A stretch of 64,000 nt of DNA from a virus: IMG/VR virus record IMGVR_UViG_3300025010_000007, positions 16,470 through 80,469 of that record, one strand, 5' to 3'. The notes under the pieces are model-generated. The model saw nothing but the letters and a program-made list of their open reading frames with translations. It was not told the origin of the DNA and did not search any database. Shown here in pieces: positions 1,408 through 57,251 of this stretch (positions are counted from its first letter, which is position 1; each line of letters begins with the position of its first letter). The translations under genes were made by a program, and so were the position numbers.

Positions 1408-2045
1408 GCTTCCATCACCGCCACATTAATATTTACACCTTCTGATATGACGTAGATCGGCACCATAATTGTAGGGTCGAATTTAAATGTTATCACGGTC
1501 CCAGACTCAACAGGGAAACCAGTTTGCTGAGTAACGCTAGACGGGCCAATCCGGAAGCGAAGCACGGGATCTTCGTTTTTAATAATCATCATACGCCTAC
1601 CTGTTTTTGCCGACGCCGCAGCAAATATTTCTGCCGCGGTAGTCGTTACTGTTTTAGTCCCAACGGACGGAGCTGCAACAATTTCATCTCCCGTGCCGGT
1701 AATAGTTGCACTTACTGACGCGTCTACTTTCAACTTTCCGTCAGAAGTCACTCCGACATCGTTTGAGCCATCTGTTATTTTTGCTTTACCAAGTAGTGCA
1801 GTCCCTGCTGGTAGACTACCAGTTAGCTTGGTAGGGATTGCCTCCGCATCCTGGTTAACAACCTTCACATTCCCGGGGCTTGCAGCCGTCAATAACGGGT
1901 TACCCTGGGCATCATACAGCAGCACTCTGCCAGCGCCGCCTTCACCTTTCCACATTTCAAATCCCGTCTCGTCACTATTTACATATTGGGGCACGGGCAA
2001 ACCTCTGTTGGTTACTAAAATATCCGCATCAATAACAGCCGGCAT
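1404..2045 (-). CDS. Putative tail fibre/adaptor structural protein
   Basis: Start MPAVIDAD at 2045 behind an AG-rich RBS; G/T/A/V-rich beta-type sequence. Confidence 0.65.
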   Translation of the reverse strand: MPAVIDADILVTNRGLPVPQYVNSDETGFEMWKGEGGAGRVLLYDAQGNPLLTAASPGNVKVVNQDAEAIPTKLTGSLPAGTALLGKAKITDGSNDVGVTSDGKLKVDASVSATITGTGDEIVAAPSVGTKTVTTTAAEIFAAASAKTGRRMMIIKNEDPVLRFRIGPSSVTQQTGFPVESGTVITFKFDPTIMVPIYVISEGVNINVAVMEA

Positions 2046-2080
2046 TTTTTTTCTCCCCTTTCTTCTAAAAACCATTTCTC

Positions 2081-6593: not shown

Positions 6594-9500
6594 CTATACC
6601 CCCTGGAAGCTGGTATGCCGCCCTATAGTGAGTCGGGCTTGCTGGGCTTTAAAGCCACTTCTTCTTTCTAATATATCAGCCACGCGTTCGGCAAGTACCC
6701 TAGAATCCTCACCCGGCTGTTGATAAATGTTTATTGTCACATCTCCATGATTATACACTTCCTTCCTGCCCAACACATCTGACAGTCTATGATTAGGTGT
6801 AATTTGACTACCCCGCGGTACATTCATTAACTCAGGCCCTTTTTCACCTACCCAGGCTAAGCCACCAGGGGCAGAATCCGTACCTGCAGCAAATCGAGCT
6901 ATATTGTCATACATACTACCAGCTAATGCCTGACCACCAAACGAGCCCAAACCTGCACCAACTGCTGCACCAATCAGTGCTGTCAAAGGCGATAAAACAC
7001 CAGCGCCGACAAGCGATCCGGTTACAGCACCAGTTAAAGCCCCTACTCCTATGGAACCCAGTGAAGAGCCTAGTTCTTTTGCTAATGCTTGCTTTTTATC
7101 ATTTGCACTAATTATTTCCGATGCAGAAGCAAACAGTGCTAATGGTATAGCTAATCTTGAGAGTGTCTTAGTTATATCACTAAATCCCCGTGCAAGGTTT
7201 TTTGCTTGGTGGGCTATCCTGCGAACCTTATCCGCTTCTTCTATTGTGTTTGTTTTAGCTATTTTCTTCACATAGTCTTTATGAATTTCATGTACGGCTT
7301 TTTCATATCCAGTTCTACTAGATTCAAGCCCTACCGCCGCGTATTCAGCATTGTTAGCGCTATTTTGTATTTTTTCGCTACCGAAAAATCCTTTGACCCC
7401 ACCCCAGGCATTAGACATGAAATTTCCAATACCACCAAAGAAACCTCCTTCAGCGTGCATTGGAATCCCTAGCATCTCTCCAGCCCTTTGCCATAAGGCT
7501 AGTGCTCCACCTCTTCTGCTTAGGGACAGAGGAATAATGACCTCTGGGCCAGCCTCACCTACAAGCCCAAGGTGTGAGCTGGTTATAATGCCACCGGAAG
7601 CGTACTTTGCAAGTGTCGAACCAGTTTCGCCTGACGTAACACTTACACTTCCGCCTATACCTGCACTCCTTTTAATATTTGACCATATCTCTTGCACCGC
7701 ATGGACAGGGGACGTTGCCATGGACTTAATACCATCCACCAACATGCTTATTATATTGGCACCGAGATTATAAAAATCTGTTCCTAAGTTACCAAGAGTA
7801 GACTTCATATCAGTCCATGTATCGGAAAACATATTTTTGATGTCTGTCCAAGCCTTGCCCCATTTACCCGTTAAGATATCGCAACCAATAACAATAATAC
7901 CAGACACAATATCCCATGCAATTTTAATTACTCCCACAATATAATCCCAAGCTAGTTTGGCTGAACTTTTAATGACACTCCAAGCACCTTTTAGAAATGC
8001 AATTGCTGGCTGCACACCGTTTTTGATAAGCGGTCCTACCACTAACCATACATTTGCCATTGCCTGTTTTATAAGAGGCATATTAGTAATAAACCAGGAT
8101 TTAACCGTTGTCCATGCGCTTATCGTAGAACTTCTTACTGCGTTCCATGCTCCCATAATGGAATTCTTAATCTCATTAAATGCGGGCATAATCGCCGACT
8201 TAATAGTGTTCCAGAAACCAACCAATAATGGTCTTATGGTGTCCCAATTCTTGTACACAAGATAGGCAATACCTGCAACAGCAGCAATGGCAAGGACAGC
8301 TCCGCCAGAAAATAAGGCTATTTTACCGAAGGTGATACCAGCAACCGATAAGGCTAATTGTAGGGCTCTAAAAGATGTAACAACTACGGTAATTGCGCCA
8401 CCTATTGCCAAAAAAGCACTAACACCACCCGCAATAGCAAATATATATTTACTCACCTGGGGATGCTTATCAAAATATTTTGTTAGCACCTCCAGTTCAT
8501 CCCTTATAAGATTAAACATTTTCGATGTTCCATCAAGCAAAGGTGTGCCCAGCACGGTCAGAGATGTAACCCATGATTCTTTAGCTGTATCCATTATTTG
8601 GTTAAAATTCTGCATTTGCAAAGACACGCGCTCATTTAAGCTCAACTGATTTATTAAGCCATCTTGAATTTCCTCAAGCGAACCCTCCCCAGTTCGCAGT
8701 AGGGTGTATGCTGTCCTTCCGCCCTGTTCGCCGAACACTTTATGGAACAGTTTAATTAGTTTATCTGTACCCATCCCTTGCTCCGCCAGTTCAAATTGCC
8801 GCCCTATCTCTTTTTCATCGGCAATAATTTTGCCTCCACCGACAGTTTTTCGTAATATTTCCGCAATATCTTTAGCGGCTTTTAGTTGTCCTCGTGGATC
8901 TTTAGCGTAATCAAGGAATATAGACTTACCTGAACTGTCCAGCCAACCGACTTCGGCCATCATCTCTGTTTGTTTTTTTGTTTGCGGTACAAGGCGTTCC
9001 AGGAAGTTGCGTACAAATGTACCAGCGGAAGCACCTTCAGGTGTTTGAGTTCTGGTTAATGCAACCAGCACAGAAGAATCCAACACCTGTTCAGCTTTAC
9101 TCCTATTAAGCCACATTCGCGTAGCTACACCAGCCATATTACCCAGGCCCCGGTTAATATCTTCTGCATTTGCTGAAGAAGCTGCAGCTACTTTTGTTAC
9201 TGTATCAGCAGCTTCAAGCATTTGCTGGCCTGTCAACTGAAAACCAGCTCTAGTTTGAACCATAAGTTCTGCAGCAGATTCTGGAACCATTTTATTTAAC
9301 TGAGCAAATTTTATAGTGGCCTCAGCGGCTCCGTTCATAATATCCTGATACTGAATACCGCCCTTTTGAAGCTCAACAAAAACACGTCCGGCATCAAGAT
9401 TAGAAAATGTTGTTTCAAGACCTAACCTGGTGGTAAGGTTTTGAATGTCATGCATTTTTTGAGTAATTTCATTGGCCTTGGACGGGTCAAAAAGATCTTT

Positions 9501-9779
9501 ACCGAAAGTTAAGGACTTAATTTCAGTCATAACTTCCTGCAGGTCTCCAGCCTTACTCACCGCTTCCTTGGCAGCTGCAGCGGTAGCTAACATTCCTGCT
9601 GTACCAACTGCAGCAAGGGCTCCCCCGGCAAAGCTAATATTTCTTAAACGGTTCATTTGATCTTGAACTTGCTGAGTTGCGCCTTCCAGTAAGCGAAATT
9701 GTGAAATTATATTCCTGACACCGCTACTGATATGATCTGCTAGCGATATACTTATCGCTAAATCTAATATCGAACTCAT
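6594..9779 (-). CDS. Tail tape measure protein
   Basis: About 1060 aa, A/G-rich. TP901-type core, TM segment, W-periodic repeats, VGEAGPE/VGEKGPE motifs. Start MSSILDL after GGAGGTG. Confidence 0.93.
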   Translation of the reverse strand: MSSILDLAISISLADHISSGVRNIISQFRLLEGATQQVQDQMNRLRNISFAGGALAAVGTAGMLATAAAAKEAVSKAGDLQEVMTEIKSLTFGKDLFDPSKANEITQKMHDIQNLTTRLGLETTFSNLDAGRVFVELQKGGIQYQDIMNGAAEATIKFAQLNKMVPESAAELMVQTRAGFQLTGQQMLEAADTVTKVAAASSANAEDINRGLGNMAGVATRMWLNRSKAEQVLDSSVLVALTRTQTPEGASAGTFVRNFLERLVPQTKKQTEMMAEVGWLDSSGKSIFLDYAKDPRGQLKAAKDIAEILRKTVGGGKIIADEKEIGRQFELAEQGMGTDKLIKLFHKVFGEQGGRTAYTLLRTGEGSLEEIQDGLINQLSLNERVSLQMQNFNQIMDTAKESWVTSLTVLGTPLLDGTSKMFNLIRDELEVLTKYFDKHPQVSKYIFAIAGGVSAFLAIGGAITVVVTSFRALQLALSVAGITFGKIALFSGGAVLAIAAVAGIAYLVYKNWDTIRPLLVGFWNTIKSAIMPAFNEIKNSIMGAWNAVRSSTISAWTTVKSWFITNMPLIKQAMANVWLVVGPLIKNGVQPAIAFLKGAWSVIKSSAKLAWDYIVGVIKIAWDIVSGIIVIGCDILTGKWGKAWTDIKNMFSDTWTDMKSTLGNLGTDFYNLGANIISMLVDGIKSMATSPVHAVQEIWSNIKRSAGIGGSVSVTSGETGSTLAKYASGGIITSSHLGLVGEAGPEVIIPLSLSRRGGALALWQRAGEMLGIPMHAEGGFFGGIGNFMSNAWGGVKGFFGSEKIQNSANNAEYAAVGLESSRTGYEKAVHEIHKDYVKKIAKTNTIEEADKVRRIAHQAKNLARGFSDITKTLSRLAIPLALFASASEIISANDKKQALAKELGSSLGSIGVGALTGAVTGSLVGAGVLSPLTALIGAAVGAGLGSFGGQALAGSMYDNIARFAAGTDSAPGGLAWVGEKGPELMNVPRGSQITPNHRLSDVLGRKEVYNHGDVTINIYQQPGEDSRVLAERVADILERRSGFKAQQARLTIGRHTSFQGV

Positions 9780-9832
9780 AAAATCACCTCCCTTACTAAA
9801 ATAAAAGCATCCTATATAGGATGCCATAGCTT

Positions 9833-10702
9833 TCATCTTAACTTTATTGAGTTAAAAACACCTGTTATTTCATCTTTAACTGCTTGAACATTACCGCCAG
9901 TACCATCAAGGTCGTTCCACATTTCTTTAATTAAATCAACGTGTATTTTTATATACAAATCGTTTATACTAAATACGTTATTGGCATTTTCCGGCAATAC
10001 TAGTCCAACTGGAAACTCTTCAGTAAATATATTTCTGTTTTTATCAATATTAGCCCGGGTTTCATTGGCAAAACTTGCCCATTCAAGTTTATCATAGTTA
10101 TTTCTTTGTTCGTTATATTTTTGGTTAATGGAATTATAAATAGATTTTAAAAAGTCTACATGAATTTGCAACTTCTCACTTTCTACTACTGACTGAGGTT
10201 TTTGTGAGGAGGCTTTTAATTTTATATCCACCTCTCGCGATACCCTCATAATGTTAAAGCCAAACGACTCTTGGACACTATCTCCTTTCAAATACTCCCC
10301 ATCCTTACCAACCAATTTAAGTACAGAGTCTGACTGATTACGAGGAGTAAACAAAACTTCAACAACATAAGGACCTATGAATTCAGGGTGATTAGGTGGT
10401 AGCAACTCAGTTGAAAACTTTCCATTAATAACTTCCACCCCGCTAGTTACTCCTATATATGCTGCCGTTTCTGGACGTCCTGCAACATCAAGGCTAACAG
10501 AAAGTTTTGAACCTACAGGTAAATCTGTTGTACCGGCAATCAAGACTTTATCATTCTGGTAATCTACATCTAAGATTTCGAGTTTTGAAAATTCATTTGT
10601 TCTATCATTGCTTTTATTTCCAACTTCCTCTTTATCACCTTCACACCCCACCAAAACCACCATCAACAAAGCCATCATCACAAAAAGTAAAATTTTCCTC
10701 AC
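9833..10702 (-). CDS. Lipoprotein moron (possible superinfection exclusion)
   Basis: Signal peptide with LVGC lipobox; AT-rich; own RBS and a downstream hairpin. Confidence 0.75.
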   Translation of the reverse strand: MRKILLFVMMALLMVVLVGCEGDKEEVGNKSNDRTNEFSKLEILDVDYQNDKVLIAGTTDLPVGSKLSVSLDVAGRPETAAYIGVTSGVEVINGKFSTELLPPNHPEFIGPYVVEVLFTPRNQSDSVLKLVGKDGEYLKGDSVQESFGFNIMRVSREVDIKLKASSQKPQSVVESEKLQIHVDFLKSIYNSINQKYNEQRNNYDKLEWASFANETRANIDKNRNIFTEEFPVGLVLPENANNVFSINDLYIKIHVDLIKEMWNDLDGTGGNVQAVKDEITGVFNSIKLR

Positions 10703-10821
10703 AATACCCCTCCTTTTCAGTAATTAATACCACACCGGAGAGGTATTTCCTTCTTTTCCTGCTAGACAATCACCAAGCATCTAAGTTATATTATTTACTC
10801 ATAGCAATCACTTCCTCTAAT

Positions 10822-10837
10822 TATTCCACGTGGAATA
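10822..10837. promoter_or_regulatory. parS-like palindrome 1
   Basis: TATTCCACGTGGAATA within a perfect 22-bp palindrome at 10819-10840. Confidence 0.65.
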
Positions 10838-10877
10838 ATTCTGTCACTCTTAATAATATTCGTCGACATTCTTTTAC

Positions 10878-10904
10878 AAAGGAATCACCTCACTGTTGTC
10901 GAAT
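10878..10904 (+). promoter_or_regulatory. SigH-like promoter
   Basis: AAAGGA-N17-GAAT upstream of the small peptide gene. Confidence 0.6.
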
Positions 10905-10946
10905 ATTGCCATGGGGTGTAATTCGAGAGAAAGAGAGGTGATTAAT

Positions 10947-11090
10947 ATTAGCGATAAACCAAAAGATGCTGAGAAACCCAGACTAGTACCAATACTCGAC
11001 CATGCCTTAAATGAATCGTACCTAAAAGAAACTGCAAGATTAACAGAACAAGTGGATAACGATCCACCGCCACCACCCAAGAAGCCTTAA
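10947..11090 (+). CDS. Small Pro-rich peptide (module 1)
   Basis: GAGGTG RBS then ATT (or GTG at 10938); xSDKPKDAEK...ALNES...DPPPPPKKP; stop abuts the convergent gene. Confidence 0.6.
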   Translation: MSDKPKDAEKPRLVPILDHALNESYLKETARLTEQVDNDPPPPPKKP

Positions 11091-11091
11091 T

Positions 11092-11754
11092 TTATTGCCT
11101 GAATTCTTCGGCCCTCCGTTTAGCATCTTCGTATGCTGACGGAGGGAAAAATTCATAAACTGTTTTAGTAACTGTATCTACGTATGTTCTTTCAGGCTTC
11201 TCAAGCCATCCATTCCAAGCTTGAAACTGCTCCGTACAAATTAAAAGCATTCCCTTGTCTTGAGCCCCAGGAGTCCAGCTTGCTTCAAATAAACCTACTA
11301 TCGCACATTCCTTCTTATCAATTTGGTAAACTCGAATAATAGCTTCTTTTTCGCTACCAACAAACTTCTCCCAAGCAGATTCTGACGACAGTACTGGACG
11401 TAGCCCATCCCGTTTTTTGTATGTCCAATTGAGAATAAATCTTCTCCCCTGCTTTTCCCACCATAAAGCTATTAGTAAAGCAACGATAAAAACAGTAAGA
11501 ATATAAAAAATAAAACACGGCATTTTTAAAGTAATAGCTTCAAAATCTATTATAGAAAGTTTTTTATGAAATCTAATTGATGCTGCTCCCCAAGTAAGTA
11601 AGATGCCTGGGATACTGAAAAGCAATCCGATTACTGTTTTCTCAAAATCAGTGGAAGTCTTGCTCTCAGATGGACCAATCATCCGTGCCAAATATGAAGC
11701 GATTATGCCGGGCAGCACCAATAAAATAGTGCCAAGTAAATTAAAATTAGTCAT
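11092..11754 (-). CDS. 3-TM membrane protein with soluble C-terminal domain (DUF6338-like), module 1
   Basis: LLVLPG...FEK...FSIP, three hydrophobic segments, AWE motif; paralogous to 14851-15504. Confidence 0.7.
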   Translation of the reverse strand: MTNFNLLGTILLVLPGIIASYLARMIGPSESKTSTDFEKTVIGLLFSIPGILLTWGAASIRFHKKLSIIDFEAITLKMPCFIFYILTVFIVALLIALWWEKQGRRFILNWTYKKRDGLRPVLSSESAWEKFVGSEKEAIIRVYQIDKKECAIVGLFEASWTPGAQDKGMLLICTEQFQAWNGWLEKPERTYVDTVTKTVYEFFPPSAYEDAKRRAEEFRQ

Positions 11755-11817
11755 TGTTTCACCTCAATACTAGAGTTCGATATAATTTCCATTTTCCCCT
11801 CCAGTATATTCTTAAAT

Positions 11818-11833
11818 TATTTCACGTGGAATA
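11818..11833. promoter_or_regulatory. parS-like palindrome 2
   Basis: TATTTCACGTGGAATA within a near-perfect 28-bp palindrome. Confidence 0.65.
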
Positions 11834-11929
11834 ATTTAAACAACCCCCCTTCCCTTTTCATCGATAAACTCTATCAATAGAAAAACACCCTGGGAATGGG
11901 TGTTTTAATCTAAATTTATGTCACCAGTT

Positions 11930-12358
11930 TCATTTTCTCGAACACTCTATCTTATCTGGCAATGTCTCAAAATCATAATCATCGGGAAAAACATCAATTA
12001 CTTTCCATCCAAGTCTGTTAAGCTCCCCGTCTCTTACCCTAGCCTTTCTACTAGAAAATATGGTTTTTGAGGTCCATATCTCAATGCCTACGGAACAGGT
12101 AGGAATGCCTATATCAAGATAATATAAAGGCTTTTCTTCAAATCCCAATAGCACTGGAAATTCAATTGCTGCAACATAGCTATTTTGTATTATTTTAATA
12201 AATGCAGACATTTTTAAGAAATAGTGTAGATATGTTTCATTTCTATGTTTACCATATCTACTTCTCAATGATTTATACATATCTTTGAGCGGGAACCCTT
12301 CAAAAACACCATTCCTTAAATCTTCATTTAATTTTTCGATATTAATGGTATCTACCAC
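11930..12358 (-). CDS. DUF559/Vsr-like PD-(D/E)xK nuclease-fold protein
   Basis: YYLDIG...GIEI...RDGELNRLGWKVI pattern; the usual E-x-DG is degenerate. Confidence 0.6.
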   Translation of the reverse strand: MVDTINIEKLNEDLRNGVFEGFPLKDMYKSLRSRYGKHRNETYLHYFLKMSAFIKIIQNSYVAAIEFPVLLGFEEKPLYYLDIGIPTCSVGIEIWTSKTIFSSRKARVRDGELNRLGWKVIDVFPDDYDFETLPDKIECSRK

Positions 12359-12454
12359 TTCTTATTCCTCCATGGGTTAAAAGAGTTTTAAGTTAAAATT
12401 CCGTTATCGACCAAATCAATAACGGAATTAATGAGAATAGGTATCTTGACTCCC

Positions 12455-12696
12455 CTACTTAACCCGCCTTAACTGGCCCGGAATATTCCCATTAGACCAG
12501 CTAAATACAACCTCGCCCTTTAGGTCTATCTCTGCCTTTACCCGACCCAGGAGAACCCCTACAATCATAATCTTACCTATTTCTGCACCTGCCAAATCGC
12601 CGCTATCAATATCCTTATCCACCTGCTCAGCGGCTTTGCGTAATACGGCTGTTCAAACTGTTCAATTTGAGCCTGATTAATTTGAGGCAGATTCAT
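12455..12696 (-). pseudogene. Frameshifted ~80-aa hypothetical gene
   Basis: MNLPQINQAQIEQFEQ overlaps the parB stop. It continues as AVLRKAAEQVDKDIDSG...RRVK in another frame after ~12650. Confidence 0.5.
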
Positions 12697-13729
12697 GATA
12701 CACCTCCACATAATTATCATTTACGTTAAGCTCATTTTCGATCTTGTCCAGCCATTGACGGGCTTTTATAATCGCTGACCTACATTCCATTCTTAATTCG
12801 GGCCGACTAATTAACCGAAGTGAACTGTTAATTACAAGTAAAGGGGCGGTTTTTTCAATAAAACCATATATCTGCATTATTACGTCAGTTGCCGCCTGTT
12901 CTTCTTTACGAAGTTCCGCTTCAGGACTTTCCCTTAATACCCTCTGCTCCTCATTCAACTGCTTAATCTTTGCCTGGTACCACTTTTGCTCCTCTTTTAG
13001 TTTGGATAACTGATCCTTAACCTTTTCCGGCACTACCTCCACCGTTACGGTTTTTTCTATGATCTCTGGCTCCTTATTTTGTGCTTCAGTCAACTTTCTT
13101 TCTAAATCCTGCACCCGGTTCTGCTCTGCCTTTGCTTTGGCCTCTGCATCCTTGGCTTTTCTTTCGGCAGCATCAAGTTTAGCCTTTGTTTCAAGGTGAG
13201 CCTTATTAATGCTGATTTTTTCCTCGTTGAGCTGCTGAATGATTTCCGGTTCTGCATGTTCCGCTATGAATTTGGCTTTACGGTATTGTTCACCACTACC
13301 AAACCCGATCTGCTCTGCAACCTCGTCTCTTGAATTGCCTGCTGCCTTACTTCCTGCAAAATTTTGCAGAATGTCATTTCTTGCACCTTGCCTTTGCTTA
13401 GCTCGTTCTTTCTCAATTAGTTCAATCTTATTGGAAAGTTCCATCATTTCTGTAAAGGTAAAATTTTTCCGGTGTGCGTTTTCTGCACGTTCTGCTTTAA
13501 ATTGTTGTAAATAATCCTCAAATTCTACTATTCTAACTTCAATCTGCTTTAGTCCAAGCGACTGACAGGCTCTAATCCTTCTCTCGCCGGCTACCAAAAC
13601 ATATTCTTTAGTGATTACAGGAGGTTGGAGAAGCCCTATTTCCTTAATAGAATCGGCAAGTTCCTGTAAGTCTCCTAGATCTTTTCTTGCTCGGTCAACT
13701 ACTTTAATTTGATTTATATCTACAAGCAA
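12677..13729 (-). CDS. ParB/Spo0J N-terminal domain + HTH + coiled-coil protein
   Basis: LADSIKEIGLLQP, LVAGERRIRA, AENAHRKNFT; probable TTG start at 13729. Confidence 0.85.
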   Translation of the reverse strand: MLVDINQIKVVDRARKDLGDLQELADSIKEIGLLQPPVITKEYVLVAGERRIRACQSLGLKQIEVRIVEFEDYLQQFKAERAENAHRKNFTFTEMMELSNKIELIEKERAKQRQGARNDILQNFAGSKAAGNSRDEVAEQIGFGSGEQYRKAKFIAEHAEPEIIQQLNEEKISINKAHLETKAKLDAAERKAKDAEAKAKAEQNRVQDLERKLTEAQNKEPEIIEKTVTVEVVPEKVKDQLSKLKEEQKWYQAKIKQLNEEQRVLRESPEAELRKEEQAATDVIMQIYGFIEKTAPLLVINSSLRLISRPELRMECRSAIIKARQWLDKIENELNVNDNYVEVYHESASN

Positions 13730-13803
13730 ACTTTCACCCCCACCTTGTCCATCCATCGCCCTAAAGGGTAACCGCCTAAAGGCGGCAATATTAAAAGGAG
13801 GGA

Positions 13804-14160
13804 TTATTTACCCTCCTTTTTTTGTCTCAACATTTTAAGTATGTTCGTTCGTTTCTTGACTTTTCCAAGAACTTTACTTTTCTTAATTAGTGGGTAAGCG
13901 TTTTTCCGAGGACCGCAATAAACAACTTTGACTTCGTATTCGCTTAGTATTTCATATACCGCCCTATACGATTCGTCGTTATAATCTATAACAAACTTAT
14001 AACAGCCGATCAAGTCTCCACTCAAAGCAATGCCCGCCTCTATATCCTCATAGATGGCGGACAGTTCGGCTTTAAATAGTTCCTTTAATTCCGATGGACA
14101 CTTCTTTAAAAATTTTTTAGCCTCACTCACAAATTCTACACTAATCACCGAAAACGTCAT
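13804..14160 (-). CDS. RelE/ParE family toxin
   Basis: AKKFLKK...LSGDLIGCY...YRAVYEI...GPRKNAY. Confidence 0.85.
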   Translation of the reverse strand: MTFSVISVEFVSEAKKFLKKCPSELKELFKAELSAIYEDIEAGIALSGDLIGCYKFVIDYNDESYRAVYEILSEYEVKVVYCGPRKNAYPLIKKSKVLGKVKKRTNILKMLRQKKEGK

Positions 14161-14371
14161 CCCAAGAATACGTCTTTCCCGTCCTTGCTTCCCTACGTCC
14201 TTTTTCTATTTTAGATATTGCTAGCTTGTCCCTTTTAAGTGATGCTGTAGCTGCTATGTCCGGTTTTTTCTTCCCTCTAAACTTCGTTTCTATTGTAGCA
14301 ATAGCAGGTGGCATAGTAACACCCCTCTTCCTTAGTAATCCCTTTACTTTGTATTTTTTTCTGTTACTCAT
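14141..14371 (-). CDS. Cognate antitoxin (start may be internal, MPPAIA)
   Basis: Overlaps the toxin; C-terminus GRREARTGKTYSWDDVF is typical of RelE-associated antitoxins. Confidence 0.75.
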   Translation of the reverse strand: MSNRKKYKVKGLLRKRGVTMPPAIATIETKFRGKKKPDIAATASLKRDKLAISKIEKGRREARTGKTYSWDDVFGD

Positions 14372-14606
14372 AGATTACCACCCTTATCCAAAATATAGAA
14401 GTAATTTATAGTTATTATTTCCATATTATAGGCTAAAATCCTGCTAGGTCAGAAAATATTTTTTGATTTTATGTATCAACTACTTATATTTTTCATATAA
14501 TATATATTTACCTATTTGGGACTTAAACATATATACCATTGCACTGGAGTTCTACAACCCCCCCCCCGGTTATCTTTTAACCGGAATTAACTTTTTCCCT
14601 ACCATT

Positions 14607-14633
14607 AAAGGAAACACCCCCCAGCTGTCGAAT
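14607..14633 (+). promoter_or_regulatory. SigH-like promoter
   Basis: AAAGGA-N17-GAAT. Confidence 0.6.
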
Positions 14634-14675
14634 ACTGCAATTAATGGAGCGGTTTCGAGGAAGGGAGGTGTATTT

Positions 14676-14831
14676 ATGTCAAAAATACCACAAAAGTCAA
14701 TTAGAGGTAGCGCTAATGACAGTGCGACAAAAGCTTCTATAGTTCCAGATAATTTCTCAGTTACTAGACAAAGTATTATTCCCGATAAGGCGCAACAACC
14801 AGATACAAACCAAACTTCTGATAAAAAATAA
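14676..14831 (+). CDS. Small hydrophilic peptide (module 2)
   Basis: GGAGGTG RBS, ATG at 14676, 51 aa MSKIPQK...ANDS...SIVPD...SIIPD...DKK. Confidence 0.7.
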   Translation: MSKIPQKSIRGSANDSATKASIVPDNFSVTRQSIIPDKAQQPDTNQTSDKK

Positions 14832-14850
14832 GATTCAATTAATCATCCTT

Positions 14851-15504
14851 CTAGCCCTCTATTTCTATTGCCTTATTAAATTCATTGGCATTGTATATAA
14901 CTACAGCAACTCCCGATTTTGTATCCACATAAACCCTATCGACCGGGACATTGTATTTAGTTACAATGTCCTCAACTTTTTTAGAATCAGCTAGAAGAAG
15001 GCATCTTTCTTCTGAGATACTTTCTGACATATTTATTGGACTTCCATAAACTTTTGCATCTTTCAATATGACCTTTACTGCCTGTGATTCTTCACCATGA
15101 AAAGCATCTTCCCAAACCAAATTCCCCTCATTAAGCTCTGCTTTATTATTACTTTTTCTAAATTTATTAATTAGTTTAATTGCAAATTCCTTTTTGACAA
15201 AACCATTCCAACATCCACAAACTACATAAGCCATTAATAAACTCGAAAACATATATAATACTAAACCGCTTAACGACTTTATTTCTGTCTGCAATTTCGT
15301 AATATTTGCCGCCTCTAAACTACCCTCTTTTAATGCCAATAAAAACAAATTACCAATTAATACTGGTATTGAAAAAAGAACAGCTATTACCAACTTTTCT
15401 ATATTAGTATATTTGGCAGAGGGGTGTGAGCCGACTCGTTCATTTATCAGTATTGCAATTAGCCCCGGAGCCAACAATAATATGTATGCGAGCAAAGTAT
15501 CCAA
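14851..15504 (-). CDS. 3-TM membrane protein (DUF6338-like), module 2
   Basis: LLLAPG...IEK...FSIP, VWE, and a C-terminal RVYVDTKS matching RTYVDTVT of the paralogue. Confidence 0.7.
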   Translation of the reverse strand: MDTLLAYILLLAPGLIAILINERVGSHPSAKYTNIEKLVIAVLFSIPVLIGNLFLLALKEGSLEAANITKLQTEIKSLSGLVLYMFSSLLMAYVVCGCWNGFVKKEFAIKLINKFRKSNNKAELNEGNLVWEDAFHGEESQAVKVILKDAKVYGSPINMSESISEERCLLLADSKKVEDIVTKYNVPVDRVYVDTKSGVAVVIYNANEFNKAIEIEG

Positions 15505-15573
15505 AACTACACCCCTTATTAAATTATAACAAAATATGTACTTAAAAGCTTCAATTTAAATCTAATCCCCCGG

Positions 15574-16052
15574 CTAAAATCTGACCGGGGGATTCTTTTC
15601 GTTCCAATCATTAACAACCTGCACGCATGCCAAAAGTTCAACCTCTGTCATGTCCATCGCTTCGGCATATGAAATACCTGCTCCGGAAGCCAAGGAAAGT
15701 TCGATCCGCAACTTGAACCATCCTTGATTTGCTAGTTTTTTGCCAGTTCCTCAAGCTTATCCTTTACAGACCTTGGCATGTTTTCTTTTTCAAATTCAGC
15801 CCATTCCTCATAAGTGAATTTATCCATCACCTCAAATATTTCAGCAAGGTTTTGAGGTACATCCACCTTTTCCCCATTAACGGCATCGACACTAATAATG
15901 TTCTGTACGGTCAAGGTTGACATAACGCCACCAATATTATGCCCACCTTCATCCATACTTGACGCTAAAAGTTTGCGCTCAATAAAATGGTGCTGGCCCT
16001 TCTTTTCCCGTAATTCAATTTTCTTACCGGTCGATAAAATAATTTCTAACAT
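15574..16052 (-). CDS. Tail assembly chaperone G (15732-16052) and -1 frameshift product GT (to 15574)
   Basis: A-AAA-AAC slippery heptamer at 15741-15735 before TAG. The -1 frame is open: LANQGWFKLRIELSLASGAGISYAEAMDM...PVRF. Confidence 0.85.
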
Positions 16053-16107: not shown

Positions 16108-16545
16108 CTATGAGATTTTGCTACGCTTAACCGCATGCCAGTTTAATGTATTATTGAAAGGTTTATTATTACCGTCAACCGACTTCTTAAAGCCATCAAA
16201 GGTAACCCCTTCATATTTGTACTTTCGAACGGTGCCGTCCTTATAAGTCTCAGTAGTAAAAATCAAAAACTTAAGCGTACCGCCGTTTTGCTCCTGATAT
16301 TCGTTCTTTTTATCTACAATGTCATCGTAGGCTGTATTTACGCTTTGCCCTTCAATACTCCCCTTCCAGCCGCTTTGGATGACCTGGCGGTGCTCGGTTT
16401 CCTCACCAATGGGATTCTTTTTTTCTTCACTGGTTATTTCTTCAACCGACCATTTTAGGATTTCCGGTGTTTTCTCCAGAACATTACCTAATTCATCGGT
16501 TAGGGCAACTACAAGTTTTTTACCCAGCAATCCATCTTTGGCCAT
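16108..16545 (-). CDS. Tail tube protein
   Basis: 145 aa directly after the sheath; beta-rich, GWKGSIEG. Confidence 0.8.
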   Translation of the reverse strand: MAKDGLLGKKLVVALTDELGNVLEKTPEILKWSVEEITSEEKKNPIGEETEHRQVIQSGWKGSIEGQSVNTAYDDIVDKKNEYQEQNGGTLKFLIFTTETYKDGTVRKYKYEGVTFDGFKKSVDGNNKPFNNTLNWHAVKRSKIS

Positions 16546-16546
16546 A

Positions 16547-18076
16547 TTAATTCACCTCCACATTTGTACCGCCTTGGAAATTAAGTAAAATCCACTCAGC
16601 GGTATTGTAGTGTTTGACCTTAATGTTCTGAACAAACTGATCGATAGCTGCTGCTGCATCATCGAAGGCGATTGAATACGCCTCGATTTTACTTGTTTCT
16701 TGTTCATCAACCGGTGCAACAAGGTTATCAAAAAAAGTTCGGATCCTGCGCTCTGCATTGCCTTTCATAACCTTCGTCATAGCCTTACCCTGCCAGGGAG
16801 CTGCCACAGCCTCTAATGCTTTTTCAATCCAGCTATTTAACCGGCGCTTATTTACTTTGCGGTTTTCATCATCACTGATTAGTTCACCTGCCACATCGGT
16901 CTTAGCAAGAGTGTAATCGTTAGCTATGCGCCAGGCCAAAGAACCATCACCGGCTGCCGAAGGTTTAAGCTGGAAGGCAGCAATCTGATGATTATATAAC
17001 TGGGAATACTGGTCAAAGTCAAGTTCCTGCTCTGCCCCGGATACCCAAGTACATTCTACGGCAAGGCCGGAATCTTCGATGTTTCCGATTACATGGGCAA
17101 TGGCCGACAAGCAAGCACCGGAGGTATATTGGTCTCCCACTGATTTATAACGACCATAGACCATCTGCATAAAGTCAGTGTCATAAGTATCCCGGTAAGT
17201 GACAGCAGCATCCACATTAGCTGCAGAACCGATACCACAATATGTCAAACAGTTGTACTTCTCACCGAAAGCATATAATGCAGCATCAGCCGTGGCCTCG
17301 GAGAAGTCGGCAAGGGCTACATCAGATACAACTGTTCCCACTAACTCCAAAAGTTTAAGACCGGTTCGTTTACCTGTACCAGAGTCGTAGGTACCAATAT
17401 AATCAGCTGCAGTAAGTGCTGCTCCGTTAGAACCACTGGTTAACTGTGTTTGAGCCAGTACAGCTGGACGGGCATCGGTAAAGGATGCAGCATCGGATTG
17501 TAAATCCTCCAAAACAAAATGCTCGCTGCGAGAATTGACATAGGTTACCGCATATCGAGCACTTGCCGGATCCATACTTAAGTTGTCATAGGTTTCAAAG
17601 CCACCGATATCAGACCATAACATCAGTTTAAATGTATTGGCATCGGTTCCATCGGCAGCTTGTACGGTAAAGATGTTGGCATACTCACCCGGACCGGCTT
17701 TTGGTGTCACCTTAAGAGTTGGATCCGGTGTTACTTGTCGGTCATTCAATGTTTTGCTGGCTATGGCGTATCCGGCACACAGAACCCGCACAAAAACAGC
17801 TTTTTTAACCCGTGCCCGGTGTAGATGGTCTAACAGGGCGTTACCCTTTTTGGATGCAGTTGTCAATCCCAGCACCGACGCTACAATCTCAGAAAGACGT
17901 TTGGTCGGCGTTTCGCTGGCGTAAACATACTGGTTAACTGGTCCCCGGTCGAAATCACCCACAAAACCCAACACAAAGTCCTTCAAGTCTACTGCATCCG
18001 ACTGCGGCACAGCTAACTCATTAATATATAAGCCTGGTGGGTACCCGGCTAAAGATGTTACTCCACGTAAAATCAA
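16547..18076 (-). CDS. Contractile tail sheath protein
   Basis: PGLYINE, FVGDFDRGPVN, NKRRL motifs. Confidence 0.9.
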   Translation of the reverse strand: MILRGVTSLAGYPPGLYINELAVPQSDAVDLKDFVLGFVGDFDRGPVNQYVYASETPTKRLSEIVASVLGLTTASKKGNALLDHLHRARVKKAVFVRVLCAGYAIASKTLNDRQVTPDPTLKVTPKAGPGEYANIFTVQAADGTDANTFKLMLWSDIGGFETYDNLSMDPASARYAVTYVNSRSEHFVLEDLQSDAASFTDARPAVLAQTQLTSGSNGAALTAADYIGTYDSGTGKRTGLKLLELVGTVVSDVALADFSEATADAALYAFGEKYNCLTYCGIGSAANVDAAVTYRDTYDTDFMQMVYGRYKSVGDQYTSGACLSAIAHVIGNIEDSGLAVECTWVSGAEQELDFDQYSQLYNHQIAAFQLKPSAAGDGSLAWRIANDYTLAKTDVAGELISDDENRKVNKRRLNSWIEKALEAVAAPWQGKAMTKVMKGNAERRIRTFFDNLVAPVDEQETSKIEAYSIAFDDAAAAIDQFVQNIKVKHYNTAEWILLNFQGGTNVEVN

Positions 18077-27133: not shown

Positions 27134-27196
27134 CAGAGCACCTCTCTTTATAGTTATTAGGACTATATTCGACGCGCTCTGCCGCTTTCCTTTAAT

Positions 27197-30347: not shown

Positions 30348-30425
30348 TAATAAACACTCCTAAAACACAATCTCTCCAACTACTGATATTCGACATAAGG
30401 GGATGTTTTCCTCTATAACCAATAT

Positions 30426-31506: not shown

Positions 31507-31968
31507 CTAAATTACCCCCTTATATATATGTTGCGATCGTATGACAAGCCCGATCTTTTTTTCTGCCCTAATAACAAATCTCTGTACACTGCCTTTTGTG
31601 CAGCCCATTAACTTCCCGGCCTGCGCGAATGAATAGCCTCTACCCCGAACCAAATCAAACGCATACCGTTCCCGCTCGGTCAGGTTTTTCATTAAACTAT
31701 CCAACAAATCTAGTACATGTTCGGGGGCAGATTCTGTAGATGTTCTGTTAGTGATGAACTGCGACAATTCAGTAGGATCAACTGATATTTCGCGCCTGTC
31801 TTTAGGCAGTCGCCCAACCTGCCAAGTGGTTCCTGGTATGCGCCCGGTCTCCATAATCTCAATCGCAAAGCTGGCGTCAGAGATCATGTTGCTGCTCTCC
31901 ACTGGTACCACTTTAGCTGTACGTAAGTTTTTTATTGACTGCTTGTATTCCTGGATCAGACTCTGCAT
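31507..31968 (-). CDS. Sigma-70 region 4 late transcription activator (PBSX Xpf-like)
   Basis: LIQEYKQS...MISDASFAIEIMETGRIPG...LTERER...GYSFAQAGKLMG; located just before the packaging genes. Confidence 0.8.
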   Translation of the reverse strand: MQSLIQEYKQSIKNLRTAKVVPVESSNMISDASFAIEIMETGRIPGTTWQVGRLPKDRREISVDPTELSQFITNRTSTESAPEHVLDLLDSLMKNLTERERYAFDLVRGRGYSFAQAGKLMGCTKGSVQRFVIRAEKKIGLVIRSQHIYKGVI

Positions 31969-31995
31969 CAAATCCACCCCCAAAAAAATATGTAT

Positions 31996-34714: not shown

Positions 34715-37158
34715 TACATGTACCCCCCCCCTATGCCAACTATCTGACTATTAACCTGTGCCAACAATCTCCTGTCCTTCTCCTGCTGAATCCTGAACTT
34801 TCCGTTTTCCCGGCAATCCCGGAACAGTACCATGTCTAACTCCTTTTCGCTCGCTGCGCGAAGTTGAAATCTATACTCATCACTGTCCAAAGGAAATTGC
34901 AGTAACTTATCGACAGTGGACATCATTTCACATCCATTGGGTGCTTGTCCTCTAAATCCGGGTAGATATATGCCATTGCCTTGGTTTTCTTGCTGCCCTG
35001 GCACTTCCTCCCCAACCCTCTTCCAGCCCCTCTTTGTCGCATATTCCACAAGGTTCCTCTCAGCCTCTTCCCTGGTCGGGACGTACGGCATCGACGTTGA
35101 TTTCATGCAGGTAGGCGCATCTTCTCCGTCCTTTTGGTAGAACGTTCTGTACCCGATTATCCTGCCGCGAGAATTGTAAGTAATAAACAGTATCCGTCCC
35201 GTATCGTCTATGTGGTGGCAGGTCTCTCCGAAAGGATTAAATAGCTCCTGTTTCTGCCCCAAAACTGAAGGTTCCTGTTGCGGTTTTTCCTTCTCCGCCA
35301 AAGCTGGGGCTGAAAAACCTCTACAGGCGTGAAACAGCTTGCTATTTTCCTCGAAACCATGCCAGTTCGTTGCTTTAATACTAAAGTCAGCGTTGATGCA
35401 CCGGTCCCGTAAAAATCCATTAGTCCCTGCTGGAGACTTAAATATGCAACCATCCGGGCAGTTGTCGTGAGTGTTATGAGTGCTTTTGTGGTTAAATTCG
35501 GGATTTTCTTTTAAAGGCAAAACATTGGATTCTGATACTGCAGTTTCAAAAACTCCCCGGCAGTTCTTCCACTTTTCTTCCGGATCCTCAGTGTAACTGT
35601 CGTTAAATAATTCTGGATTACTGCACCGGTAATGTTCTCTCTCCAAGTGCATCACTTTAACTTTATATTTACATTTATCAGGGCAGTCGAAGTGTGTATT
35701 CATTGTATTTTGCATGGTATATTCACTGTCCACTTCGACTACTACCGGTACCGGCTTATTGTGTTTACACTCGCCGTTTGAACACATCTTAAACGGCTGT
35801 CCCTCATTCATCACTGTAACGACGTGTTCACAGTTCACCTGGCATTTTGCCGTATACAGGAATGTGTTTTCCATGGTGTAAACTGGTTCCTGCTCCTGCA
35901 TCTTAAGTTCCCAGCACTCAGGCTCGGTGCAGCGGAGTGTATGCGTCTCTCCGTCATTCGGGTCAATCAGATATGACTGGCCAATACTGCAGTCGCTGCA
36001 GTCAGCATGATCTGGCAGCGGCCTTGATTCTTCCCAATCCTCTTGTCTACTGGCTTGCAGATCAGCAGCTAATAAATCCCTGCGTTTTTTAGCCTCTGCC
36101 AGGAGTATTAGTAGATATTCCTTATCAACTTCAGTGCTGATGTGGCTGCCAAGCTGCTCTTCTGTCAAACCTTCCGCTACCTGCCTGAGAGTCTCCTTCT
36201 GCTCCTCGGATAGTGACTCTTGTTCCATATCGCCCAGCAACATCACATCATTCCACACGCACCCAATGCCTATCTGTTCCCTATGCATTGCAAGTTTTTT
36301 ATACTCGCAAACTTCACATTTAAGTGTAATTTCTTGTTCCTGCACTCCTGCTGCCACTAAAGCCAATCTGCGGGCCTGTTCTGCTGTGACAGTATCTATT
36401 GCTGCAGCTATCTCCTGAGAGGATTTTAGTCCTTCCCTTTCCGCCTCACGCTCTGCTCTCAGCCTCTGCCGTTCTTCCTCTTGTCGTGCCAGTTCTTCCT
36501 CCAGTAGCCTTTTTCGCTCGTTTTCAGCAGCTATCTCCTTGGCCACTTCCTCGCTCTGAACAGCTATTTCTCTGGCTATCTCCCTGACTGGTAGCCCCTT
36601 AACAACACTTTCAGCCACACGCTCCATAATTTCTTGACCAAACATTAACTTTTTGGCGGCCAAAAGTTCTTTGGCGTGACCGGGCCCAATTATTCCACGT
36701 GAAATATTTTCCCTCACACTCTCCGGCAGCTCTAACAATCGCAACCGGTTTGCTATATGACTTTGGCTCTTACCCAGTCGCTCGGCTAACTCCTCCTGCT
36801 TCAGTCCGGCATCCAGGAGCAACCGGAACCCCTGCGCCTCTTCGATGGGGTTTACGTCCTTGCGCTGCAGGTTCTCGACAACCATAATTTCAAGCTCCTG
36901 CACTTCATCCAGGCCGTATCGGATAATTGCAGGTATTGCAGACAGCCCTACTTCCCGTGCGGCTCTCCAACGACGTTCCCCTGCTATCAGGCGGTATGTT
37001 CTTGGGGTTATTTCAGCCTCAACTACCACTACCGGCTGCAGTATTCCGACACTACGAATACTGGCGGCAAGCTCGGTCAAAGAGTTGTCATCAAAGATTT
37101 TTCTCGGATTCTGCGGATTCGGAATTATCATGTCAAGCGGTATGTTCATCATGCTCAT
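34714..37158 (-). CDS. parB: ParB/Spo0J family protein with long Cys-rich C-terminal extension
   Basis: PNPQNPRK, GILQP, LIAGERRWRAA, VENLQRKD, HTH QEELAERLGKSQSHIANRLRLL; 814 aa. Confidence 0.9.
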   Translation of the reverse strand: MSMMNIPLDMIIPNPQNPRKIFDDNSLTELAASIRSVGILQPVVVVEAEITPRTYRLIAGERRWRAAREVGLSAIPAIIRYGLDEVQELEIMVVENLQRKDVNPIEEAQGFRLLLDAGLKQEELAERLGKSQSHIANRLRLLELPESVRENISRGIIGPGHAKELLAAKKLMFGQEIMERVAESVVKGLPVREIAREIAVQSEEVAKEIAAENERKRLLEEELARQEEERQRLRAEREAEREGLKSSQEIAAAIDTVTAEQARRLALVAAGVQEQEITLKCEVCEYKKLAMHREQIGIGCVWNDVMLLGDMEQESLSEEQKETLRQVAEGLTEEQLGSHISTEVDKEYLLILLAEAKKRRDLLAADLQASRQEDWEESRPLPDHADCSDCSIGQSYLIDPNDGETHTLRCTEPECWELKMQEQEPVYTMENTFLYTAKCQVNCEHVVTVMNEGQPFKMCSNGECKHNKPVPVVVEVDSEYTMQNTMNTHFDCPDKCKYKVKVMHLEREHYRCSNPELFNDSYTEDPEEKWKNCRGVFETAVSESNVLPLKENPEFNHKSTHNTHDNCPDGCIFKSPAGTNGFLRDRCINADFSIKATNWHGFEENSKLFHACRGFSAPALAEKEKPQQEPSVLGQKQELFNPFGETCHHIDDTGRILFITYNSRGRIIGYRTFYQKDGEDAPTCMKSTSMPYVPTREEAERNLVEYATKRGWKRVGEEVPGQQENQGNGIYLPGFRGQAPNGCEMMSTVDKLLQFPLDSDEYRFQLRAASEKELDMVLFRDCRENGKFRIQQEKDRRLLAQVNSQIVGIGGGYM
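36691..36706. promoter_or_regulatory. parS-like palindrome 3, inside parB
   Basis: TATTCCACGTGAAATA just downstream of the HTH-coding sequence. Confidence 0.65.
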
Positions 37159-57002: not shown

Positions 57003-57170
57003 TTGGTTACCGTAACGCTATTTGGAATTATTCTAAATAGCTTATTTATTATATTAGCCACTTACTCCGTACTTATGAAAAACGCTGGGGATACAAAATT
57101 ATATTTAATGCTGGCTATGATAAGTGTTGTAATAACTATTTTAAGCGCTCAATTATTCCACGTGAAATAA
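57003..57170 (+). CDS. Small two-TM membrane protein (55 aa)
   Basis: GGCGGTGA RBS, TTG start, two hydrophobic segments. Confidence 0.5.
   Translation: MVTVTLFGIILNSLFIILATYSVLMKNAGDTKLYLMLAMISVVITILSAQLFHVK
57154..57169. promoter_or_regulatory. parS-like palindrome 4
   Basis: TATTCCACGTGAAATA. Confidence 0.6.
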
Positions 57171-57251
57171 TCCCGCCCCATGCCGGGTATAATTTTATTC
57201 CACATTGCAATTACCTGCTTGGCAGTATAAAATTACTGTCAACTAAAGCCG

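Follow-up and report, generated by a model that had tools for sequence, protein, structure and literature searches.

The closest published relative of the system described here is an operon of Pseudomonas stutzeri ATCC 14405, in which a DUF6338 gene adjoins genes for three unannotated proline-rich proteins of fewer than 50 aa, SEP1, SEP5 and SEP2; these small proteins were detected by mass spectrometry, and the authors regarded them as restricted to the species and perhaps encoded by de novo genes (PMC10433244). The operon was reported without interpretation. The nearest mechanistic analogue is SpoIISA/SpoIISB(/C), in which a three-transmembrane (TM) toxin with a cytoplasmic domain is neutralised by a small protein (PMC3057836). 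SpoIISB and SpoIISC of Bacillus are one or two basic disordered proteins of ~45-56 aa, and each gene has its own promoter (PMC3057836, PMC3038269, PMC4926146). A third point of reference is provided by the type I pairs of B. subtilis prophages (txpA/RatA, bsrG/SR4 and yonT/SR6), which are convergent and whose RNAs overlap at their 3' ends (PMC6562991). Here we describe two modules, A and B, in a 64,000-nt stretch of DNA (the window; bases 16470-80469 of an 80,469-bp IMG/VR virus record, with all coordinates given as window positions), in each of which a gene for a DUF6338 membrane protein is met tail-to-tail by a gene for a small peptide on the opposite strand. The two genes very probably form a genuine, dedicated pair. 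We tentatively regard the two modules as copies, since diverged, of a single mobile cassette of two genes that the phage carries as cargo and in which the peptide controls a membrane effector, and we give this reading slightly less than an even chance. What is new is that the DUF6338-microprotein cassette exists in a variant that is carried by a phage, is duplicated and has a convergent peptide gene with a promoter of its own. The four genes are as follows.

11092-11754, minus strand: DUF6338-A, 220-aa paralogue with the same architecture as DUF6338-B (open reading frame (ORF); BLASTP against B)
10947-11090, plus strand: pepA, 47-aa hydrophilic peptide with C-terminal PPPPPKKP; aligned start codon ATT, 6 nt after GAGGTG
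14851-15504, minus strand: DUF6338-B, 217-aa membrane protein with a TTG start (ORF, Pfam PF19865, AlphaFold2 model)
14676-14831, plus strand: pepB, 51-aa basic hydrophilic peptide with two S-x-x-K/R-x-S-I-I/V-P copies; ATG start 5 nt after GGGAGGTG

The initial annotation had recognised two diverged paralogous membrane genes, and both are open over these intervals. Their products are 22% identical over 216 aa (BLASTP, E=3e-10), have the motifs LL..PG, EK..FSIP, WE and R.YVDT in common, and align full-length with each other (alignment A3) and with the wider DUF6338 family (alignment A6). Against the Pfam model DUF6338 (PF19865), B scored 26.8 bits and A 26.3 bits, placing A just below the gathering cut-off of 26.5; the corresponding scores in the genome-wide search were 26.5 and 25.7 bits, and PF19865 is the precomputed Pfam label of most A and B homologues. 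These homologues, which include Dred_2610 of Desulforamulus reducens, are 54-80% identical to DUF6338-B and 50-73% identical to DUF6338-A. The homologue set is a small family, with 311 clusters at E<=0.001 in a profile search of 1.8 billion representatives. The A family had no match in the scanned viral contigs and only distant matches in a 401-genome sample of the phylum. A profile search of PDB sequences gave a chance match only (E 0.02), and the ESM Atlas yielded only unnamed clusters, below 0.9.

The small ORFs lie tail-to-tail with the membrane genes exactly as first annotated. pepA ends at 11090, 1 nt from the DUF6338-A stop codon (11092-11094), and pepB ends at 14831, 19 nt from that of DUF6338-B (14851-14853). 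The strong ribosome-binding sites claimed for both peptides correspond to a Shine-Dalgarno sequence, GAGGTG, located 5-6 nt 5' of the aligned start. The reading frame and ribosome-binding site of pepA stand as annotated, whereas its start codon at 10947 is ATT. The only canonical in-frame starts are a TTG at 10896, which would give a 64-aa form and lies inside the promoter, and an ATG at 10911 directly after the promoter. Pairwise comparison of pepA with pepB showed no significant similarity (E=22), and a search of a 5.8-billion-protein set with pepA returned only the query itself; its relatedness is visible only in the family alignment (alignment A7), where it appears as a degenerate member with the clearest proline tail of the set.

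The family peptides carry the motif S-[AVCI]-x-[KR]-x-[SP]-[IA]-[IV]-[PST], mostly in two copies 12-17 residues apart, which lie either within one ORF or split over two tandem ORFs. Of the peptide features that had been proposed as shared, the basic Pro/Lys-rich end is indeed common to the set, whereas the N[D/E]S motif is not conserved and the S-x-x-K/R-x-S-I-I/V-P repeat is found instead. The peptides are probably disordered, and the repeat is probably strand-like. In three loci of the Pelotomaculum group, the peptide frame exhibits a ratio of non-synonymous to synonymous polymorphism (pN/pS) of 0.33-0.54, an excess of changes at third positions and in-frame indels; by these sequence comparisons it is under purifying selection.

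To define the pairing beyond the window, we used nine close loci for which DNA was available (L003, L008, L009, L010, L012, L014, L021, L022 and L023), where L009 is a D. reducens prophage, L010 has the same sequence as L011 (Candidatus Formimonas warabiya) and L012 is from Pelotomaculum. Together with the two genes of the window and a chromosomal copy, L024, these give 12 DUF6338 genes, 11 of which are faced by one or two convergent, hydrophilic, basic ORFs of 37-75 aa, each with a strong Shine-Dalgarno sequence. Convergence of the peptide gene with the DUF6338 gene holds for the window and for every one of the nine close loci; the peptide genes end -17 to +19 nt from the DUF6338 stop and in most cases have their own promoter. 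A motif-bearing peptide counterpart adjoins every B-family homologue, and the pairing is kept down to ~25% identity of the membrane protein. An adjacent small ORF, which the initial annotation suggested looking for beside homologues, was thus present in 11 of 12 cases, albeit with a conserved motif other than N[D/E]S, and a dedicated pair whose architecture persists despite divergence, as first proposed, is upheld across varied contexts. The small ORFs could alternatively be chance frames, with the common upstream block left over from a duplication. The ATT start of pepA and the dissimilarity of the two peptides by BLASTP fit this idea, which is nevertheless hardly credible given that 11 loci have an ORF behind a strong Shine-Dalgarno sequence at the same place, that the motif is conserved, that pN/pS is <1 and indels are in frame, and that the -35, -10 and ribosome-binding site are kept while the sequence between them diverges.

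The neighbourhood of the module differs from phage to phage. It lies among tail genes in the window, directly beside holin and amidase genes in L003, next to a tail or minor-head protein in L008, by a late regulator followed by HNH and terminase genes in L009, and with small terminase, integrase and large terminase genes in L022. These differing neighbourhoods, at least five phage contexts, indicate that the membrane gene and the peptide gene move as a unit. The position in L003 bears on the possibility that the module serves lysis timing, with DUF6338 as a holin- or antiholin-like protein and the peptide as its late-expressed modulator. SpoIISA itself has been compared with holins (PMC3057836), and the promoter type described below is common to late genes; however, no lysis genes neighbour the module in the window, L008, L009 or L022, and the phage of the window has two copies, which makes a lysis-timing role very improbable.

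Comparison of the window with L003 also revealed a sharp mosaic boundary. A stretch of ~125 nt (window ~14700-14835, L003 ~1000-1130), covering the last two-thirds of pepB and the gap, is 100% identical in the two phages, whereas the adjacent DUF6338-B genes are ~82% identical. The L003 homologue of pepB keeps its frame through an in-frame 2-codon indel, differs in its N-terminal third and is identical over the last 37 aa. The sequences suggest that this is most likely a recent recombination boundary.

In more distant homologues the pairing takes other forms. L028 has a 40-aa ORF with 25% proline on the same strand, overlapping the DUF6338 stop codon, and L030 has a Pro-rich ORF ending in PPPKQPKK on the same strand and upstream. 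These same-strand ORFs indicate that the pairing, unlike the orientation, is a general feature. Because the pairing is constant while the orientation varies, the core of the system appears to be a partnership at the protein level, with the convergent layout as a lineage-specific variant. The mass-spectrometric detection of the P. stutzeri small proteins is one argument that such peptides are translated, alongside the selection on the peptide frame and the common motif and layout. As in P. stutzeri, both modules and the nine close loci have proline-rich basic ORFs of <80 aa directly beside DUF6338, and the PPPPPKKP of pepA and the Pro/Lys ends of the B family fit the SEP type. The P. stutzeri small genes differ in lying behind the membrane gene as co-oriented members of a predicted operon, whereas those of the window are convergent; the phage peptide has its own sigma-H-type promoter, lies in the late region, occurs in two copies and is conserved across related phages. 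The statement in the initial annotation that no function had been described for such a module is correct, although the pairing itself had already been reported in P. stutzeri (PMC10433244). The cassette is otherwise almost wholly unannotated, since the peptides escape gene callers.

The membrane protein was modelled with AlphaFold2. The DUF6338-B model, built on a 136-sequence alignment, has a predicted local distance difference test (pLDDT) score of 94, and the two models overall have scores of 94 and 88.8. In agreement with the three TM segments first annotated, DUF6338-B has helices at residues 2-24, 34-60 and 78-118, which are followed by a compact β-rich C-domain (~120-217) containing a short helix (130-135), five strands with one inserted helix and two further helices in total. 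A Lys/Arg-rich stretch follows the third TM helix. By the positive-inside rule, the C-domain of the model should be cytoplasmic and the N-terminus outside. When the C-domains of both models were compared with known structures by VIA-align, nearly all of the top matches were Hfq/Sm/LSm proteins (Z 4.2-4.6, rmsd 2.6-3.0, 51-54 residues), and these accounted for ~30 of the top 50 rows obtained with the isolated domain. No GAF fold appeared among the VIA-align rows for the C-domain, of which the scores were weak (best Z 4.4-4.6), MscS was absent among its structural matches, and Foldseek returned nothing at E<=0.001 for the whole model or the C-domain alone. The models give a weak indication that the C-domain is an Sm-like small β-barrel.

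Such a domain would suit a peptide partner. Ring formation is common among Sm-like barrels, which resemble SH3 domains in binding extended peptides, so that a proline-rich, strand-forming peptide would be a natural ligand. The typical ring formation of Sm domains also suggests an oligomeric membrane assembly. In MscS, the middle β-domain is classed as Sm-like, and DUF6338 would resemble MscS-type membrane Sm barrels in having three TM helices and then a putative cytoplasmic Sm-like barrel; there is no sequence similarity to MscS and the likeness is one of analogy only. Co-folding of the B C-domain (residues 105-217, alignment A6) with pepB (alignment A7) gave a score of 0.02 against a mark of 0.32, a result that counts neither for nor against binding.

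With SpoIISA/SpoIISB, the modules share a protein of ~220-250 aa with three N-terminal TM segments and a cytoplasmic C-domain (predicted from the model in DUF6338), small basic hydrophilic partner proteins, separate promoters for each gene and hosts that are spore-formers. The two systems differ in gene order and orientation and in the C-domain, which is a GAF fold in SpoIISA and models as an Sm-like barrel in DUF6338. A Pfam scan of all four window proteins at E<=0.1 found DUF6338 only and neither SpoIISA_toxin nor SpoIISB_antitox.

The transcription signals of the modules suggest when the peptides are made, and comprise the following elements.

10878-10909, plus strand: pepA promoter of sigma-H-consensus type: AAAGGAATC, 11 nt, GTCGAATAT
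14607-14638, plus strand: pepB promoter of sigma-H-consensus type: AAAGGAAAC, 11 nt, GTCGAATAC
30388-30412, minus strand: late-operon site with an 18/18 sigma-H match, right after a terminator and before the block with the small terminase
27167-27191, minus strand: second late site, ahead of the portal block
31507-31983, minus strand: phage sigma-like gene (Xpf-like); PHROG sigma factor, NCBIfam 'positive control sigma-like factor' at 70 bits, below the model cut-off
15523-15531, minus strand: extended -10-like element TGTTATAAT, a possible promoter of DUF6338-B itself, found by eye and given low weight

The sigma-H consensus consists of a -35 element RNAGGAWWW and a -10 element RNNGAATWW (PMC8510167). 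In each peptide promoter, 17 of the 18 positions covered by these two 9-mers agree with the consensus, and the spacer is 11 nt long. The 32-35-nt blocks 5' of the two small ORFs are 80% identical, and the block AAAGGAAnCACCnCnCnGnTGTCGAATAnTGC occurs at exactly two sites in the 64 kb, 10878 and 14607 (0.00 expected). The identically spaced shared promoter of the initial annotation is therefore real and in this strict form confined to the two modules; when the pattern is relaxed to AGGAA-N14-TCGAATA, the 80-kb genome contains four matches (against 0.01 expected in the window), the additional two being the minus-strand late sites. The -35, -10 and ribosome-binding site of the peptide promoter are kept in L003, L008, L009, L010 and L022, whose spacer and leader sequences have diverged. 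An alternative reading as an extracytoplasmic function (ECF)-type promoter (GGAAC ... GTC) was dropped, as the spacing suits sigma-H rather than ECF. A run of ten C residues (14558-14567) lies 40 nt 5' of the pepB promoter and adjoins a small hairpin (14566-14584); such a homopolymer could vary in length between copies. In the Pelotomaculum-group loci (L012 3442-3705, minus strand, and the equivalents in L014 and L021), the peptide gene follows a conserved gene of 62-63 aa and a terminator on the same strand. The peptide promoter region of this group is without the AGGAA -35 found elsewhere, which indicates that peptide regulation differs between subclades.

The late site at 30388-30412 is immediately downstream of the sigma-like gene, and the membrane genes sit within the late transcription unit that a promoter of this type heads. 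As the membrane genes lie in the late unit and the peptides have the same promoter type, the two partners are expected to be made at the same time. The sequence suggests that the promoter may be read by the phage Xpf-like sigma, if this has sigma-H-like specificity, or by host sigma-H. The suggestion in the initial annotation of activity in stationary phase is supported only in so far as the promoter fits the sigma-H consensus; the same promoter type heads the late operon, however, so that it may equally be a phage late promoter. Separate transcription of the peptide from the promoter type of the late operon is in itself a regulatory clue. The extended -10-like element TGTTATAAT sits 18 nt 5' of the DUF6338-B TTG start and has a counterpart in L003, TGATATAAT; it lacks a good -35 and was not flagged by the consensus promoter scan. 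A canonical TTGAAG -35 for DUF6338-B was rejected because the spacer would be 20 nt, leaving the extended -10 alone.

The promoter is not restricted to DUF6338 partners. Together with its leader (AAAGGAAnCACC...TGTCGAATA...TTCGAGAGAAnGGGAGGTG), it precedes unrelated small ORFs opposite late genes in other phages, at the following positions of the respective loci.

L004 7322-7629, plus strand: promoter-leader cassette
L006 ~1840-2062, minus strand: promoter-leader cassette
L005 147-173, minus strand: promoter-leader cassette

The ORFs driven by the cassette in L004 and L006 encode zinc-ribbon proteins of ~64-77 aa with C-x2-C pairs, and in L003/L005 the cassette drives a further ORF. The pepA leader TTCGAGAGAAAGAGAGGTG (10922-10940) is similar to those that accompany this cassette in L003/L005 and L004. 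Its occurrence before unrelated small ORFs identifies it as a general, portable expression cassette for small cargo genes, which is real and not specific to the pair. This observation raises the possibility that the peptides are independent cargo acting on the host, for example as stationary-phase or sporulation regulators, and are merely co-inherited with DUF6338. The fit of the promoter to the host sigma-H consensus points in the same direction, as does the search for the sigma-like gene of the window, which detected no homologue in the other promoter-carrying records (fragments that are 22-77% complete). We nevertheless consider independent cargo distinctly unlikely, because the pairing survives at least five contexts and divergence to ~25% identity with stop-to-stop distances of -17 to +19 nt, because Pro-rich partners accompany distant DUF6338 genes too, in other orientations, and because the peptide motif changes along with the membrane-protein subclade.

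The tail-to-tail abutment of the genes means that the 3' ends of the two mRNAs necessarily overlap. A terminator scan detected one candidate signal for the pepB transcript.

14945-14972, plus strand: hairpin with T-run, inside the 3' end of DUF6338-B

The absence of an evident terminator, noted in the initial annotation, therefore holds only in part. The hairpin lies ~115 nt inside DUF6338-B and would leave an antisense overlap of ~120 nt. It is kept in five loci (the window, L003, L008, L009 and L010), with a C-G to U-A change, and is not found in the Pelotomaculum group. In the hairpin alignment, 80.7% of cells are paired compared with 42-53% in slid controls, in a small sample and over a stretch that is also protein-coding. 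The sequence evidence that this hairpin is the pepB terminator is suggestive, and the 3' overlap of the mRNAs may provide this phage lineage with additional control by antisense pairing.

The modules resemble type I toxin-antitoxin pairs in being prophage-borne and convergent with a 3' overlap and in having a membrane-acting partner. These likenesses, together with the tail-to-tail abutment that leaves no space for a bidirectional terminator and some covariation at the candidate terminator, would fit a plus-strand unit whose essential product is an antisense RNA against the DUF6338 or late mRNA, acting through duplex cleavage or transcriptional collision, with the peptide secondary. Such an arrangement is improbable, as the peptide frame is under purifying selection and has a conserved motif and a strong Shine-Dalgarno sequence, the hairpin is absent from the Pelotomaculum subgroup, and the peptide genes of distant members run in the same direction as the membrane gene, which precludes antisense pairing. 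In addition, type I toxins are <60 aa and their antitoxin is non-coding, whereas the proteins here are 217-220 aa and the facing transcript codes for a peptide; an Rfam scan found nothing relevant. The same-strand arrangements elsewhere further indicate that antisense control is not the core mechanism.

Taken together, we favour a mechanism in which the peptide controls the membrane protein. DUF6338 would be an inner-membrane protein with three TM helices (N out, C in) followed by a cytoplasmic Sm/SH3-like β-barrel, and the facing gene would produce a short basic peptide with a strand-like repeat and a Pro/Lys tail. We infer that each peptide would bind its own membrane partner, at the cytoplasmic barrel, and would either hold a membrane-acting effector (an oligomeric pore, an exclusion protein or an abortive-infection protein) in check or gate it, following the precedent of the 56-aa disordered SpoIISB that neutralises the three-TM toxin SpoIISA. 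The sigma-H-type promoter of the peptide would co-time both partners, through the phage Xpf-like sigma or host sigma-H, and the two copies, being 22% identical, would be non-cross-reacting pairs. That the peptide binds and regulates the membrane protein is a serious possibility that falls just short of an even balance. A toxin-antidote, exclusion or abortive-infection role is somewhat unlikely. The functions offered in the initial annotation, a membrane toxin or abortive-infection effector with a peptide or antisense antidote or else a peptide-sensor pair, stand as hypotheses. More unlikely still is the most specific form of the proposal, in which DUF6338 proteins are Sm-ring membrane pores gated or held shut by cognate proline-tailed peptides, forming a timed cell-fate switch with two orthogonal pairs per phage.

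Several observations weigh against control by the peptide. The chromosomal copy L024 has no convincing peptide partner, the distant homologue L029 has no clear Pro-rich partner, and among the closer relatives some of the conserved gene order could be due simply to linked inheritance. Translation of pepA may be weak, or the gene may be decaying, given its ATT start and the lack of a retrievable homologue. PADLOC, PHROGs and NCBIfam gave no match for the membrane protein or the peptide, and the fold match of the C-domain is weak (Z<5) with an empty Foldseek result. The promoter-leader cassette, as described above, also serves unrelated small ORFs. Binding, toxicity and phenotype are predictions from sequence and models only. 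Support for a partnership at the protein level comes from the stability of the pairing under varying orientation, and the two 22%-identical pairs in one genome constitute a natural specificity test. Should the membrane protein turn out to be an effector that the peptide neutralises or gates, the modules would define a new family of conflict or addiction systems carried by phages, and Sm-like domains would gain a new role. If the Sm-ring switch exists, it would kill, exclude or protect the cell at the onset of stationary phase, at sporulation or late in infection, and phages of spore-forming Bacillota would have placed its peptide under a sigma-H-type promoter, either transition-state or phage-late.

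Both modules are carried on a 5.8-kb accessory island (9833-15540) that separates the tail chaperone from the tape-measure gene. Nearly all genes of the window are on the minus strand. The 80,469-bp virus record has direct terminal repeats at its ends and is thus a complete phage genome. The public runs that contain the window DNA are groundwater metagenomes, and no RNA runs are listed among them. In minus-strand order, the island encodes DUF6338-B, a putative antitoxin, a ParE-like toxin, a ParB-like protein, a 142-aa protein, DUF6338-A and a lipoprotein. The genes of the island and its surroundings are as follows.

16547-18076: tail sheath
16108-16545: tail tube
15732-16052: tail chaperone
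14141-14371, minus strand: putative antitoxin, a 76-aa ORF upstream of and overlapping the ParE-like toxin
13804-14160, minus strand: ParE-like toxin
12677-13756, minus strand: ParB-like protein
11930-12358, minus strand: 142-aa protein with no family match
9833-10702, minus strand: lipoprotein
6594-9836: tape-measure gene

The maintenance genes of the island are plasmid-like, which hints that the phage may live as a phage-plasmid. Four copies of a 20-bp palindrome, ATTATTCCACGTGGAATAAT, are present (10820-10839, 11816-11835, 36689-36708 and 57152-57171; 0 expected), two of which flank module A. An operator function of these palindromes for the module was considered and dropped, as parS-like sites of the phage ParB (12677-13756) fit better; the palindrome resembles parS in sequence and probably belongs to ParB rather than to module A. 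A strong plus-strand hairpin with a T-run (13793-13820) lies between the minus-strand ParE-like and ParB-like genes, and by its sequence would terminate some plus-strand antisense transcript.

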